A stretch of 25,120 bases of DNA, from assembly GCA_964600095.1 (NCBI GenBank), contig CAZRIC010000002.1:1-25120 (forward strand). The letters are read 5' to 3'. Made by a program: the position numbers and the translations under genes. Positions 2,915 to 15,993 of this stretch are shown in pieces. The stretch's first letter is position 1, and every line of letters starts with the position of its first letter. The notes below the pieces were generated by a model. The model saw only the letters and a list, made by a program, of their open reading frames with translations. It was not told the origin of the DNA and searched no databases. The DNA is from an uncultured Muribaculaceae bacterium. Its GTDB lineage: Bacteria; Bacillota_I; Bacilli_A; RF39; UBA660.

Positions 2915-2924
2915 CAAGACTATT

Positions 2925-3016
2925 CCTCATCTTCCGACAACGTCGCAGGATTTAGCACCTAACTAAATAGGTTGCTGGACTTCATAGGGCCTGTCCCTCA
3001 GTCTCTCTTCATAAGG
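2925..3016 (-). promoter_or_regulatory. SAM-I (S-box) riboswitch aptamer
   Basis: Minus strand reads CCUUAUGAAGAGAGACUGAGGGACAGGCCCUAUGAAGUCCAGCAACC...AGGUGCUAAAUCCUGC...GGAAGAUGAGG, matching the SAM-I consensus (kink-turn, GCAACC, GGUGC, GAUGAG); lies directly upstream of metK. Confidence 0.93.
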
Positions 3017-3024
3017 TTTCTTAT

Positions 3025-5331: not shown

Positions 5332-5355
5332 AAACTTCGCTAAAGGGGGATAACC

Positions 5356-11007: not shown

Positions 11008-11967
11008 TTAAATATTTTGAATAGATAAAATTTCAATTTGATTAGATAAAAGAGTAGGATTATTCATTTTTGACTTTGTTAAATCTGTTGTTAAATATTT
11101 TTTGAAATCATCTGCAAATATAGTAACAGCATTATCATTATTATCAGAAGCAATAATAGAAGCTAGTAGATTAGCACCACTAGATATTCCAACTCCTAAA
11201 CCAAATTTTTTGGCTAAAATTCTAGACATATTAATGGCATCCTCATCATTGATAGAAATAATTTTATCAATCGCTTCTCTATTTACAATGGTTGGGATAA
11301 AATCATCTCCAATTCCTTCAATTTTATGGCTTCCAGTAGCAAATTTATTAGATAAAATCGGTAGTTGTGAAGGTTCTAAAGCAATTATTTTAGCATTTTT
11401 ATGAATTTCTTTAATTCTTTTAGATATTCCCATTAAAGTTCCACCTGTACCAATCCCACTGACAACAGTATTAATTTTTGAAACTTGTTTGACAATTTCC
11501 AAACCAGTCGTTTCATAGTGAGATTCTATATTCCTTATATTATCAAATTGATTAGGTCGAAATCCATTAATCTTTTTAGCAAGTATGTCAGCTTGTCTAA
11601 TTGCTTCTAGAAAACCACCTTCTTCTTTAGAAATTAAATGTACAGTGGCACCATATAATTTCATAATTTCTATTCTTTCTTTACTAGCCCAGTCTGGCAT
11701 AAAGATATGTACGGGATGGTTAAAATAGGCTCCTAAGGCAGCAAAAGATATTCCTGTATTACCACTGGTTGCTTCTACTATTGTCATTCCTGGTTTTAAA
11801 GTACCATCTTCATACGATTTTTTAATAATATAATATGCTAATCTATCTTTAATACTTCCTGTATAATTATAATATTCTAATTTAGCATATACATTTACTA
11901 TTTTTTGATTATATTTCGCTATTATTTTTATCATAGGTGTATTTCCTATTAAGTTTTCTATATTCAT
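11008..11967 (-). CDS. cysK: Cysteine synthase family (O-acetylserine sulfhydrylase-like, PLP)
   Basis: IGNTPM, KLEYYNYTGSIKDR (PLP lysine), EATSGNTGI, GIGTGGT, HKIEGIG, GISSGAN. Confidence 0.93.
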   Translation of the reverse strand: MNIENLIGNTPMIKIIAKYNQKIVNVYAKLEYYNYTGSIKDRLAYYIIKKSYEDGTLKPGMTIVEATSGNTGISFAALGAYFNHPVHIFMPDWASKERIEIMKLYGATVHLISKEEGGFLEAIRQADILAKKINGFRPNQFDNIRNIESHYETTGLEIVKQVSKINTVVSGIGTGGTLMGISKRIKEIHKNAKIIALEPSQLPILSNKFATGSHKIEGIGDDFIPTIVNREAIDKIISINDEDAINMSRILAKKFGLGVGISSGANLLASIIASDNNDNAVTIFADDFKKYLTTDLTKSKMNNPTLLSNQIEILSIQNI

Positions 11968-12046
11968 GATTTTCCTTCTTTCTATTATATTTTATATGTA
12001 AAGTAGGAAAACAACATCGTATAGAATTTACTAATTTTTTGAACAT
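11909..12046 (-). CDS. Candidate second uORF (45 aa, Cys-Cys) overlapping the cysK start out of frame
   Basis: AAGGAGG, 7 nt, ATG; MFKKLVNSIRCCFPTLHIKYNRKKENHEYRKLNRKYTYDKNNSEI*; stops 59 nt inside cysK. Confidence 0.45.
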   Translation of the reverse strand: MFKKLVNSIRCCFPTLHIKYNRKKENHEYRKLNRKYTYDKNNSEI

Positions 12047-12096
12047 AAAAAGACCTCCTTAATAATGAATGTATAAACTCACTATTAAGGAAGTCT
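12047..12096 (-). terminator. Attenuator terminator of the cysK leader
   Basis: AGACUUCCUUAAUAGUGA pairs with UCAUUAUUAAGGAGGUCU (18 bp, 2 G-U), 10-nt loop, then UUUU. Confidence 0.85.
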
Positions 12097-12123
12097 ATTA
12101 TCCCAATTTTTATGAGTTTACAC
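12071..12123 (-). promoter_or_regulatory. Antiterminator helix of the cysK leader
   Basis: GUGUAAACUCAU (12123-12112, includes the leader stop codon) pairs over 12 bp with GUGAGUUUAUAC (12082-12071). An inner GGGA/UUCC helix sequesters more of the terminator 5' arm. Confidence 0.75.
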
Positions 12124-12177
12124 GAAAAAAAGAATATAGCAATAACAACAACAATTTGCAAATACTCTTTTTTTCAT
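12118..12177 (-). CDS. Cys-rich leader peptide of cysK (19 aa)
   Basis: AAGGAG SD about 8 nt upstream; MKKRVFANCCCYCYILFFV*; Cys at codons 9, 10, 11 and 13. Confidence 0.85.
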   Translation of the reverse strand: MKKRVFANCCCYCYILFFV

Positions 12178-12211
12178 TGTAATCTCTCCTTTTTTTTTCT
12201 TGCGTGAATAA

Positions 12212-12240
12212 ATTATATCATAGAAAGCTTATTTATGCAA
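12212..12240 (-). promoter_or_regulatory. sigmaA promoter of the leader-cysK transcript
   Basis: TTGCAT (12240-12235), 17 nt, TATAAT (12217-12212), with extended TG. Confidence 0.8.
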
Positions 12241-12247
12241 AGATGCT

Positions 12248-13066
12248 TTATTTCTGTTTGCTTTTTCTTTCTTGATAATGATTATATAAGTTATAGTATT
12301 TATAATGATTTTCAATAGGTTGGAGTTCTTGTGTATCATTTTTTAATTCTTCTTGATAATCCTCTAATAATTCAAGTTCAAATTCAGAAGGAGAACCACT
12401 ATATCTTCTAGAATTTAAGCTTTTCGTAATAGAATAATTTTGAGGATAGAAATTTGTATTTCTTCCAAATTGGTCAAATGTCGATAAATTAACACCCGGA
12501 TCATGGCTATAACCACTTTTAACAGCTTTTGAAATACTATCAAAATATAAATCTATATCACATTCTCTTACTCCATAAAAAATGTCTACCATTTTACCAC
12601 TTACTTCGTCTATCATGGCATTACCTATTAATATAATTCTTTCCCCATTTTTTAATTTAGGATGTCTTCCATCGCCATAACCAAAATATAATTTTTCTGT
12701 TTCTCTTTTATATTCTTCACTAATAGGTAATCGTCCTTTTCTTATAGCATCTAATTTAGGAATAATTACTCTAATGCAAAAGGGTTTAGAATAATCTGGT
12801 AAAGTATAGATGATGGCAGCTTCTGATAATGGTCTTCTATATTCAAGTACCTGTTTTATTCTATCATCTCGTTCTACAAATGACATTTCACCTTTAATAA
12901 CAAATTCACTTTGTGGTAGTTCTGTCCATCGTCGAATATATTTTCCATTTTTTACTCTTTCTTTTATTTTAGCAGGAATATAGGACGTAGAGTGATGAAA
13001 ATAGGTAAAATCATATGGAATAATAATCGAATCCATTTTTCTTAAAATTTCTATTTTTTCTTGCAT
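12248..13066 (-). CDS. Hypothetical protein
   Basis: 272-aa ORF with AGGTG SD and an upstream extended -10; no family recognised. Confidence 0.75.
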   Translation of the reverse strand: MQEKIEILRKMDSIIIPYDFTYFHHSTSYIPAKIKERVKNGKYIRRWTELPQSEFVIKGEMSFVERDDRIKQVLEYRRPLSEAAIIYTLPDYSKPFCIRVIIPKLDAIRKGRLPISEEYKRETEKLYFGYGDGRHPKLKNGERIILIGNAMIDEVSGKMVDIFYGVRECDIDLYFDSISKAVKSGYSHDPGVNLSTFDQFGRNTNFYPQNYSITKSLNSRRYSGSPSEFELELLEDYQEELKNDTQELQPIENHYKYYNLYNHYQERKSKQK

Positions 13067-13200
13067 TTTATCACCTAATTATATTATATCATTTTATAAT
13101 TAGATAATAAATAGAGGAAACTAATGTTATTTTTTTCATTTAATTAATTTGTGTTTAAATTTTATTTAATTTATGATAATATAAAATAAGGAGTGATAAT

Positions 13201-15147
13201 ATGAGTTTACAAAGGTTTACTTATGGCTCAAATGCATCAAAAATAAGAGTTTCTAATAATATTAATTTTCAAACAGGTAAAGTACCTGATCGTGTTTTTC
13301 ATGAAAGAGGTTACAGAAATCCTGCTTGTGATAATAATGATATAGATTATAATGGAATTCTTCCTGGGCAAGATAGTTCTTATTATGAATCCATTGCGAA
13401 TGCAATGTTGGAAGATTTAGTTATCGGGGTTAATGATCCTAAAATTAATCGTGAAAATACAAGAGTATTACAATCGGCTATGGACTTTTTAGCAGAAAAT
13501 GGCGGTGGAACACTTAATTTACCAGCAGGTGAAATCTATTTTGGACAAGGTGGTACTGCTGGAACCAATGCAGCTAGCGGAGAAAGATTTGCCATTTTGT
13601 GTAGAAGTAACGTACATTTAAAAGGAGCAGGAGCAGATTCTACTATTTTAAAACCGGTTCGTTCTTTTAGTGAAAATGAATCAAGCAGTATGGATATGTT
13701 CTTTTTTAACCATTATTCATCAGGAAATCCTCCATATGCTAAAAGAGCAGATGGTAGTAATTTTCAAGCTGGAGATACAGTAGATTATACTTATATTGAT
13801 CTTGAAGGAAACTATGTTACTCTTACGGATGAACCTATTTATTTAACTAATGCAGATTTTAGTGATTTTACAATTGATGCTAGTAATGTTTTAGGAAATA
13901 AAGGAAAATATACTACATCTGGTAAAGGTTTTATGATCAATTTATTTAAAGATTGTGACTGGAATAATGTAGTTGTAAAGGATACAGATGCTACTGGATT
14001 TGGTATGGATTGTCCAATCAACTGTACCATTACTAATTGTGTGGCAATAGGTTGTGGAAAGCAAGCAGATACTACCTCTGGAGGAGCTAGTGGCTTTGGT
14101 ATTGGAACTGGATACGCCAATGGAGAATCTATATTAATTGCTAATTGTAGAGCTTATAATAATACAAAGTATGGTATATTCTTTGAACATCAATCAAGGT
14201 TTCAATCAGATACAAGTAGATATCCAGCGACAACTTCAGATGGATTCTTAGTTGTTAATTGTGAGGCTGGGGGTAACTTATATGATTTTGGTGGTATTAA
14301 AGCCTATGATGTTACTCTAAAAAATGTAAGAAGTATCAGAAGTGAAGAAGAATTATATAGAAATTCAAGAACTATTGCAGCATCTCCTTTAGCGTATAGT
14401 TTGCAAGCAAGTTCAACTTTACCTGTGGATAATTCTAATTTTACATTAGATCGTTCCATTAATAGTGAATATACTAGACAACATCTATATTTTTCTGATT
14501 ATTCCTCTAATTGTCATGTAGAAGAGAGTAATTTATATTCTAATATAATAGACTTTAATCATTCTGAACCTGAAATTTCATGGGCAATTAATTCTGGTAG
14601 TATGACTTTGAAAAATCCAAATGAGTTTGGAAGTAAAGATTCTCTTTCTAGAATGGAAGTTATGCAAATATTATATAGATATAATGGTATGCCTAATGCT
14701 ATAGATGTTACAGGACGCCGTTCAATTGGACAAGATACATTAGCCAAGATTAATACTTATAATGAAACTGGAAACAATTTTAATGATTTAGGAAACTATG
14801 CTAGTGAAGATGGTGGATTAGACGCAGTTCTTTGGGGAGTAAATAATAAGATTGTTATGCCTAATGCCTCTTTTAATCCAGAATCTGTATGTACGCGTTC
14901 CCAAATGGTAACAATGTTATATAGAATGGCTGGTTCTCCTAACTCTAGTGGAGCAGTTCCTTTTACAGATATTCAAACTGGTTCATGGTATTCTGATGCA
15001 CTTACTTGGGCATATAATAATGGAATAATTAAAGGAGTAAGTCTTACGGAATTTGCTCCGAATAAAGAATTAACAAAAGAAGAAATGGCAATTATATTAT
15101 CACGTTATGATAATATGCTTTCTTCTTCTTCAATAGCGACACTTTAA
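13201..15147 (+). CDS. Right-handed beta-helix (pectin-lyase-fold) protein with three C-terminal SLH-like repeats
   Basis: NTRVLQSAMDFLAENGGGTLNLPAGEIY N-cap, Gly/Asn-rich beta-helix rungs, SLH-like segments ending SRMEVMQILYRY, TRSQMVTMLYRMAG and WYSDALTWAYNNGIIKG...FAPNKELTKEEMAIILSRY. Confidence 0.82.
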   Translation: MSLQRFTYGSNASKIRVSNNINFQTGKVPDRVFHERGYRNPACDNNDIDYNGILPGQDSSYYESIANAMLEDLVIGVNDPKINRENTRVLQSAMDFLAENGGGTLNLPAGEIYFGQGGTAGTNAASGERFAILCRSNVHLKGAGADSTILKPVRSFSENESSSMDMFFFNHYSSGNPPYAKRADGSNFQAGDTVDYTYIDLEGNYVTLTDEPIYLTNADFSDFTIDASNVLGNKGKYTTSGKGFMINLFKDCDWNNVVVKDTDATGFGMDCPINCTITNCVAIGCGKQADTTSGGASGFGIGTGYANGESILIANCRAYNNTKYGIFFEHQSRFQSDTSRYPATTSDGFLVVNCEAGGNLYDFGGIKAYDVTLKNVRSIRSEEELYRNSRTIAASPLAYSLQASSTLPVDNSNFTLDRSINSEYTRQHLYFSDYSSNCHVEESNLYSNIIDFNHSEPEISWAINSGSMTLKNPNEFGSKDSLSRMEVMQILYRYNGMPNAIDVTGRRSIGQDTLAKINTYNETGNNFNDLGNYASEDGGLDAVLWGVNNKIVMPNASFNPESVCTRSQMVTMLYRMAGSPNSSGAVPFTDIQTGSWYSDALTWAYNNGIIKGVSLTEFAPNKELTKEEMAIILSRYDNMLSSSSIATL

Positions 15148-15162
15148 AAATTGAAACTAGAA

Positions 15163-15387
15163 ATGAAAAATAATAATAAATGTCCAAAATGCAATAGCAA
15201 TGATATTATAAGAGTGAATGGAAGTTCTAGAGGCTATGGAGCAGGCAACAATATAATGACTGGAATGACAATTTTTTCAGCAGTAAAAGTAAATAGATAT
15301 ATTTGTTGTAATTGCGGTTATTGTGAAGAATGGATAGATAAAGAGGATATCTCTAAAATAAAAAAAAGCGGTAACCCTAAAGGATAG
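15163..15387 (+). CDS. Small Zn-ribbon protein
   Basis: CPKC...CCNCGY pairs; ATG 15163 preferred over TTG 15151, start uncertain. Confidence 0.7.
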   Translation: MKNNNKCPKCNSNDIIRVNGSSRGYGAGNNIMTGMTIFSAVKVNRYICCNCGYCEEWIDKEDISKIKKSGNPKG

Positions 15388-15400
15388 AGTTATCATTTAT

Positions 15401-15426
15401 CGACTAGTTTCATCTAGTCGTTTTTT
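15401..15426 (+). terminator. Intrinsic terminator
   Basis: CGACTAG-TTTCAT-CTAGTCG followed by T6. Confidence 0.85.
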
Positions 15427-15431
15427 ATGCT

Positions 15432-15563
15432 AAAAAAAGAGCCCAGTATTAGGACTCATTAAAGGGAGCTTACTTTCCTAGTGTGATTGAATGGAAGTAA
15501 GCATATGTTATAATTTGGTACTAAAGTACCAATTGTAAACAAGCCAATAATTATCTTATTGAC
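15432..15563 (-). ncRNA. Candidate ~132-nt structured sRNA (family not recognised)
   Basis: Own promoter, three hairpins, a single-stranded UCCCUUU linker, a GAGUCC/GGGCUC terminator with U7, and no SD-led ORF. Confidence 0.55.
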
Positions 15564-15569
15564 AAATTA

Positions 15570-15598
15570 ATAGTATCATAATTTGATAAAATTTGCAA
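15570..15598 (-). promoter_or_regulatory. sigmaA-type promoter of the candidate sRNA
   Basis: TTGCAA (15598-15593), 17 nt, TACTAT (15575-15570), extended TG; predicted +1 is G15563. Confidence 0.6.
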
Positions 15599-15654
15599 TA
15601 TGAAGCAAACTAGTTTCATAAAGTTATAGATTATACATAATATTATATATTTTT

Positions 15655-15864
15655 TTATTCTTCTTTATTCGTTTTTATTTTAGAAAAATCAATTGAAATG
15701 TCTACTGATTCATATCCACAATTAGGGCACTTTTGTTTATTTTTCATTAAAGCTTCGTTTTGTTCTTTTGTTCCTAGTGCGAAATTTACACTATAGACAG
15801 TAAGTTGCTCACTTTCAGCACCACATTTTATACATTTAACTATATTTCTACTTACTTTAGTCAT
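15655..15864 (-). CDS. Small Zn-ribbon protein (69 aa)
   Basis: CIKC...CPNC pairs; AGGAG/AAGG SD upstream. Confidence 0.72.
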   Translation of the reverse strand: MTKVSRNIVKCIKCGAESEQLTVYSVNFALGTKEQNEALMKNKQKCPNCGYESVDISIDFSKIKTNKEE

Positions 15865-15885
15865 ATTTTCCTTCTCCTAATTTAT

Positions 15886-15909
15886 AAAAAACTCCAAAAT
15901 TTTGGAGTT
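15886..15909 (-). terminator. tRNA-Trp terminator
   Basis: AACUCCAA-AAUU-UUGGAGUU plus U-run, about 10 nt after the CCA end. Confidence 0.7.
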
Positions 15910-15919
15910 GTATTCATAA

Positions 15920-15993
15920 TGGCAGGGGTGGAGAGAATCGAACTCCCAACAGCGGTTTTGGAGACCGTTATTATACCATTTAACTACACCCCT
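15920..15993 (-). tRNA. tRNA-Trp (CCA)
   Basis: 74-nt cloverleaf: AGGGGUG/CACCCCU acceptor stem, CUCCAAA loop, UUCGAUU T-loop, encoded CCA. Confidence 0.97.

Follow-up and report, generated by a model that had tools for sequence, protein, structure and literature searches.

Here we describe a candidate small RNA (sRNA) gene, well formed and new to Rfam, on the minus strand of a 25,120-nt stretch of bacterial DNA (hereafter the window). Its source genome (G000) is a 1.45-Mb MAG that is 76% complete and has 28% GC. Our preferred reading, to which we assign a probability of roughly 0.45, is that the element is an independently transcribed non-coding RNA of ~132 nt that acts in trans through an exposed UCCCU on Shine–Dalgarno (SD) sequences. 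The parts of this reading differ in strength. It is likely that the element is a real structured RNA gene; that it works by pairing of UCCCU with SDs is a tentative proposal made by analogy with known sRNAs. Its transcription and its 5′ end are inferred, as are a role in trans, the pairing with SDs and whatever mRNAs it may target.

The element runs from a promoter-like site through three hairpins to an intrinsic terminator (Table 1). RNAfold of the ~132-nt RNA gives all four hairpins, the terminator being the fourth. The promoter spacer is 17 nt long with TGA at its end, and G15563 lies seven nt 3′ of the −10 hexamer. A preliminary description of this DNA had proposed the promoter, the start at G15563, the hairpins, the unpaired stretch and the U7 terminator, and each of them lies on the minus strand where it was placed. 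The terminator does stand back-to-back with a plus-strand terminator (15401–15420), as had been noted. The absence of an SD-led ORF also holds. Beside the 8-codon ATG frame already listed, the element contains a 27-codon TTG frame (15542–15459), which has no SD and is not kept in the homologue described below; comparing the sequences of both species gave no conserved ORF in the element. The element is single-copy in its own genome, and tandem repeats were found neither inside nor near it.

Table 1 Features of the element and of its surroundings, in window coordinates
Feature	Position	Strand	Remarks
−35-like hexamer TTGCAA	15593..15598	−	TTGTAA in the G011 homologue, with position and spacing kept
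Extended −10, TGA+TACTAT	15570..15578 (hexamer 15575–15570)	−	TGT+TATTAT in the homologue
Hairpin 1	15543..15563	−	starts at the predicted +1, G15563; 8 bp; GAUAA loop
Hairpin 2 (UUGGUAC/GUACCAA)	15515..15532	−	RNAfold
Hairpin 3	15468..15502	−	variable arm; 14-nt loop; RNAfold
22-nt block identical in both species	15498..15519	−	centre is the unpaired AU-rich linker AAAUUAUAACAUAU; complement TGTTATAAT
Unpaired UCCCUUUAAU	15458..15467	−	between hairpin 3 and terminator; UCCCU core 15467–15463
Intrinsic terminator	15432..15457	−	6-bp stem and 7-nt loop (15457–15439), U7 (15438–15432)
Opposite-strand promoter-like site TTGAAT-16-TATAAT with TG	15487..15514	+	promoter scan, 10/12 matches
69-aa zinc-ribbon ORF upstream of the element	15655..15864	−	lacks its own terminator ahead of the RNA
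tRNA-Trp	15920..15993	−	conserved locus anchor; covariance-model search

Searching the whole window with Rfam 15 at gathering thresholds returned a SAM riboswitch and two tRNAs only. At E ≤ 10 on positions 15350–15700, matches were at chance level (15–23 bits, against thresholds of 45–100). The family, which the preliminary description did not recognise, thus finds no match at gathering or at permissive thresholds. The gene downstream of the element is convergent with its terminator in G000 and in the homologous genome alike, so the element cannot be a leader; a riboswitch, too, would need a regulated gene downstream on its own strand.

In the sense direction, the two hexamers match 8 of the 12 consensus positions, and a TGn extended −10 is present (TGATACTAT). 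With only 8/12 consensus matches, this promoter was left unlisted by a simple promoter scan. The arrangement TTGnAA-N14-TGnTAnTAT occurs five times genome-wide, both strands counted.

The fold of the element is unusually stable for its own genome. Its minimum free energy (MFE) of −36.3 kcal/mol corresponds to z = −5.3 relative to 200 dinucleotide shuffles, none of which folds as well (0/200). For a local calibration, we folded 257 random intergenic-like segments of 132 nt from the same genome; 0.4% of these reach z ≤ −5.3 and 1.2% reach the MFE of the element.

A BLAST search of 60 relatives identified one homologous species within the same genus, represented by G011, a mouse-gut ‘uncultured Bacilli’ MAG (contig CAJTZU010000006.1, RNA at about 31407–31533); this species is frequent among assemblies from mouse gut. 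The G011 homologue has the same four-hairpin architecture (z = −7.55). It follows tRNA-Trp at a distance of a few hundred nt and in the same orientation, matching the placement in G000, and its promoter (TTGTAA-17-TATTAT with TGT) has a spacing equal to that in G000. Downstream of tRNA-Trp, similarity between the two species is limited to the element block, which begins 3–4 nt upstream of the −35 box and stops at the U-tract; both flanks are unalignable. The upstream ORFs are unrelated (a 69-aa zinc ribbon in G000 and an 89-aa ORF in G011), and the downstream genes differ too. The RNA is identical in a second strain of the G011 species.

The element is ~80% identical between G000 and G011, against 70–88% for syntenic intergenic DNA of the same pair. 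Since neutral intergenic DNA is itself 70–88% identical, this identity alone is no evidence of constraint. At paired positions, the two species differ by six double compensatory changes (one in hairpin 1, one in hairpin 2, three in hairpin 3 and one in the terminator) and by three one-sided changes that preserve the pair; two pairs are broken, both at the base of hairpin 2. In hairpin 1, a G-C pair has become A-U by a double compensatory change and a U-G pair has become C-G, with an 18-nt core that is identical in both species. In hairpin 2, an apical C-G pair has become U-A, and two basal U-A pairs are missing in G011. Hairpin 3 combines its three double changes with a U-A to U-G change, and both the length and the sequence of its loop differ. 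The terminator stem of G011 has a different sequence in which pairing is maintained. A neutral simulation of 31 pairs at 20–30% divergence, set from the measured intergenic divergence of the species pair, gives 0.6–1.3 expected double changes (six observed; P(≥6) ≤ 0.0015) and 9–12 expected broken pairs (two observed; P(≤2) ≤ 0.003). G-U pairs in hairpin 1, hairpin 3 and both terminators are compatible with the minus strand only. The comparison demonstrates conservation of the predicted RNA structure through compensatory change in a second species, as evidence from one species pair whose two distinct sequences are too few for a formal covariation test. The structural conservation on which the preliminary description depended is borne out by these six double changes with only two broken pairs.

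Four unpaired segments are conserved: the GAUAA loop, UUACAA, a 22-nt block around AAAUUAUAACAUAU, and GCUCCCU. Conservation is highest in the 5′ half of the element, which contains the identical blocks of 18 nt and 22 nt. The 3′ half diverges faster than neutral DNA, GCUCCCU excepted.

UCCCU is the sole unpaired C-rich stretch of the RNA, the remaining C-containing stretches being paired or not C-rich. It is predicted to be unpaired with P ~1.0 in both G000 and G011, and GCUCCCU is conserved with a 3′ continuation that differs. The exposure of the seed, as given in the preliminary description, is thereby upheld at the level of prediction. Target prediction was carried out on 1172 crude SD-led translation-initiation regions of G000. 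The top match was to a sufD-like gene, with 13 bp at −23.0 kcal/mol (best of shuffled seeds, −17.7 ± 1.5 kcal/mol). The G011 orthologue has GGGAAC for GGGAGC and the arm of the sRNA is altered, which leaves 6–7 nt of pairing; since the 13-bp extension is not conserved in G011, the sufD-like mRNA is not a convincing target. The second match, to the C21 gene, retains five contiguous pairs in G011. A 9-nt pairing with the SD region of a MoxR gene had been suggested previously. The site is indeed found at 5341–5349 (UAAAGGGGG), but the pairing includes one G-U and shrinks from 9 nt in G000 to a 6-nt core in G011, and neither C21 nor MoxR is a convincing target. For the sufD-like, C21 and MoxR genes, the pairing common to both species amounts to only 5–7 nt. 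AGGGAG occurs in ~39 of the 1172 initiation regions, so the seed alone singles out no target. Of the four AGGGAGCC sites in G011, one is in the RNA gene and none of the other three is a translation start.

Other candidate seeds (the AU-rich linker, linker 1 and the loop of hairpin 3) were discarded, their duplex energies being no better than those of shuffled seeds. Full-length duplex folding with the leader of the gene for a neighbouring SLH surface protein (see below) gave long duplexes that were uninterpretable. Neither Hfq (PF17209) nor Fur (PF01475) was detected in six genomes of the genus including G000, five of which are >90% complete. A possible Fur box in hairpin 1 (GATAAT) was rejected because Fur was not found in these genomes; the result for Hfq is consistent with an Hfq-independent mode of action.

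In the Rsa RNAs of Staphylococcus aureus, a 5′ hairpin and a classical terminator are combined with an unpaired UCCC that binds SDs and lies where conservation is strongest; Geissmann et al. reported that this motif, when placed on the SD, blocks formation of the initiation complex (PMC2790875). The element resembles the RsaA–K class (RsaE/RoxS, RF01820) in its small size, its hairpin at the very 5′ start, its terminator and its unpaired conserved UCCC. Its host is likewise low-GC, and Hfq was not found in the six genomes of the genus. Unlike RsaE/RoxS, it gives no covariance-model match and has one C-rich motif rather than several, and it occurs in two species, whereas RsaE is family-wide. 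A second likeness is to LhrC of Listeria monocytogenes, in which UCCC, like the UCCCU of the element, lies single-stranded between a stem-loop and the terminator. LhrC carries UCCC in a single-stranded stretch between its stem-loops and uses it to bind GGGAG just upstream of the start codon (PMC4132741). However, LhrC is multicopy and LisRK-induced, with three redundant UCCC sites, whereas the element is single-copy with one site and shows no similarity to LhrC in sequence or by Rfam. The element also recalls 3′-UTR-derived sRNAs with an internal promoter in that its terminator is common with the upstream ORF, and it shares a C-rich anti-SD-like motif with the anti-SD 3′ UTR of icaR (PMC3868564). 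By contrast with such sRNAs, there is no conserved parental gene, the 69-aa and 89-aa upstream ORFs being unrelated, and inspection of the sequence gave no convincing pairing of the element with the SD of the 69-aa gene itself. Of the features that mark the functional class, the element has the 5′ hairpin, the Rho-independent terminator and, within a conserved stretch, the unpaired UCCC. By this analogy, the element fits the Hfq-independent UCCC/anti-SD sRNA class as an analogue, and is not a member of the RsaE or LhrC families.

The candidate sRNA gene lies in the hypervariable stretch that follows tRNA-Trp. In the mechanism that we propose, transcription from a sigma-A-type promoter with an extended −10 would start at hairpin 1, and the intrinsic terminator would end the RNA. 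The RNA would then pair in trans, independently of Hfq, through the always-unpaired UCCCU between hairpin 3 and the terminator. Its partners would be G-rich SDs (GGGAG or GGGGG) in some of the mRNAs, where pairing, which may extend into the 3′ arm of hairpin 3, would block ribosome binding.

The distribution of the element is narrow. A covariance model (R1), built from the G000–G011 pair, was searched against 20 genomes of the genus and matched these two and none of the 18 others. With filters off, nothing new emerged from the 16 further genus genomes with the anchor gene, whose syntenic loci were searched. Among 150 other genera of the family and a 150-genome sample of the order, the model gave no match beyond G000. 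The element was not found on 19 strain-level contigs for which the neighbouring cell-wall hydrolase served as anchor, in roughly seven other strain-level arrangements of the same locus or in a third lineage that carries the SLH protein. Contigs reached via the cell-wall hydrolase and the SLH protein brought a sole gain, the identical copy in a strain of the G011 species. When GTDB genomes, JGI metagenomes and IMG/VR were scanned by pattern, only chance matches came up, all of which failed the model, and phage and plasmid collections contained no match to the element. DNA runs that contain the element sequence include a rat gut metagenome. The element sequence was not found in the RNA runs searched, the four runs that were examined showing only tRNA and genes of relatives; one DNA contig with a G011-like variant turned up beside them. 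Judged by the neighbouring gene (94–95% amino-acid identity), the relatives G005 and G013 are no more distant than G011, yet are without the RNA. The RNA gene, being missing from these equally close genomes and from most relatives, is therefore young or often lost, and dispensable.

To our knowledge, regulatory RNAs are almost unknown in small-genome, uncultured gut Bacilli. If validated, the element would extend the Hfq-independent UCCC-type sRNA mechanism to these organisms, and would add a case of an sRNA gene that is very young, dispensable and situated in a genomic hot spot. With two rodent-gut Bacilli species only and no convincing target, its wider importance is limited, and it is best regarded as a plausible, ordinary regulatory-RNA candidate.

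The interval between tRNA-Trp and cysK (window 11900–15920) is hypervariable in the genus. It spans ~4 kb in G000, and in G013, G005 and G011 it contains 2.5–7.3 kb of unrelated genes instead. Neither an integrase nor a repeat of the tRNA end, such as an integrated element would leave, was found for this island. Genes for toxN, RT, Cas or TnpB were not found near the element, and the neighbouring proteins gave no informative PADLOC or PHROG matches. A 648-aa SLH/beta-helix surface protein co-occurs with the RNA in both carrier species. In a sister strain, a type III toxin–antitoxin locus is present at the same tRNA-Trp hot spot (L078:1796-2479, Logan contig SRR23219235_28321). This locus consists of 34-nt tandem repeats (×3.2; 1796–1908), a terminator hairpin and a 166-aa ToxN_toxin gene (1979–2479), and it fills the interval where G000 has the small RNA. 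Like the ToxI of that strain, the element is a small non-coding unit with a terminator in the variable interval next to tRNA-Trp. Unlike ToxI, it lacks tandem repeats and a downstream toxN, and its covariance model misses the L078 locus.

The element could also be the structured 3′ end of a tRNA-Trp/small-ORF transcript, as a stabilising 3′ UTR or as an sRNA cleaved from one. Because no terminator separates the stop codon of the 69-aa ORF (15655) from the element, this ORF has to rely on the terminator of the element, and the unrelated upstream ORF of G011 likewise depends on it. The standalone unit of the preliminary description is supported in that the element has a promoter-like site and a terminator of its own; the terminator also serves the upstream ORF. 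The SD of the 69-aa gene comes directly after the tRNA-Trp terminator (15909–15890), with no promoter space in 15865–15909; this gene is hence probably expressed by read-through from the tRNA promoter (16049–16021), and a long read-through unit is plausible. However, G000 and G011 have unrelated upstream ORFs, while both keep the element together with its promoter-like site as a single block. The −35/TGn/−10 arrangement is conserved and genomically rare, and four hairpins are more than a terminator needs. We regard a 3′-end origin as improbable, with the proviso that it and an independent gene are not strictly exclusive, dual biogenesis being compatible with both.

Alternatively, the structured RNA may have a function other than SD pairing, either as a protein-binding or sponge RNA that acts through its conserved 5′ domain (hairpin 1, UUACAA, hairpin 2 and the AU-rich linker), or as an accessory or defence-module RNA of the island. 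The better conservation of the 5′ half, with a 3′ half that beyond GCUCCCU changes faster than neutral DNA, would suit the first of these. The hypervariable island, with its type III ToxIN-like system in the sister strain, and the co-occurrence with the SLH/beta-helix protein in both carrier species would suit the second. The lack of tandem repeats, the absence of toxN, RT, Cas and TnpB nearby, blank PADLOC results for the neighbours, the lack of any phage or plasmid match and the third lineage, in which the SLH protein occurs without the RNA, all speak against such functions, which we consider unlikely.

It is also conceivable that the conserved blocks are DNA signals, with an antisense extended −10 and a palindromic operator formed by the DNA of hairpin 1. 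In that case, they would drive or control a plus-strand transcript that lies antisense both to the 5′ half of the element and to the small ORF upstream. The plus-strand site outscores the sense promoter in the promoter scan. Its extended −10 (TGTTATAAT, 15506–15514) is the complement of the best-conserved linker, and is 100% conserved in G011 along with the 22-nt block that encloses it; TGnTATAAT is rare, with an expectation of 0.018 occurrences in 132 nt of one strand. However, TTGAAT lies 21 nt from the −10 in G011 (16 nt in G000), so that the full promoter is not conserved, and no conserved ORF or terminator was found past the site on the plus strand. The compensatory changes and G-U pairs of hairpin 3 and the terminator fall outside any plus-strand promoter. 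They point to selection on the minus-strand RNA, which an antisense promoter cannot explain, and a role as DNA signals alone is accordingly given very little probability.

The RNA may also be an accessory sRNA cassette of the tRNA-Trp island, kept from promoter to terminator amid exchange and part of the function of the island, although we judge this highly doubtful. Such a cassette would, for instance, control the SLH surface protein or a defence or addiction function. With the conserved promoter on the opposite strand, it might form a sense/antisense pair rather than an ordinary housekeeping riboregulator. Finally, a non-functional remnant, that is, orthologous intergenic DNA that folds by chance and was inherited in two sister species, would account for the neutral level of identity and for the absence of the element from most relatives including G005 and G013, but is unlikely, and has scant probability, given strongly non-neutral substitutions (six compensatory doubles versus two breaks), a fold stability that is extreme for the genome and homology boundaries that coincide with promoter and terminator.

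Several minor observations concern the surroundings of the element. Two zinc-ribbon ORFs, of 78 aa (15151–15387, plus strand) and 69 aa (15655–15864, minus strand), flank the RNA convergently and look paralogous, sharing MKN..KCP.C and CxNCGY...DIS.KIK segments (inverted repeats I1 and I6). If these ORFs are paralogous inverted copies, the RNA therefore stands at the centre of an imperfect inverted duplication. Within the 78-aa gene, positions 15212–15225 (plus strand) repeat the plus-strand copy of the 5′ arm and loop of hairpin 3 (15485–15498) at 13 of 14 positions. The RNA could thus pair with the 78-aa mRNA over 11 contiguous nt, although similar repeats are common in the region and the match may be due to chance. 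Strains L088 and L089 of the G011 species differ at ~12.1–13.6 kb, beside the RNA, which is identical in both; here the MAG has a 267-aa HTH_3 gene, and the counterpart on the JGI contig is a 175-aa gene with small ORFs. The SAM riboswitch of the window (RF00162) is located at 2924–3017 on the minus strand and scores 73.8 bits.
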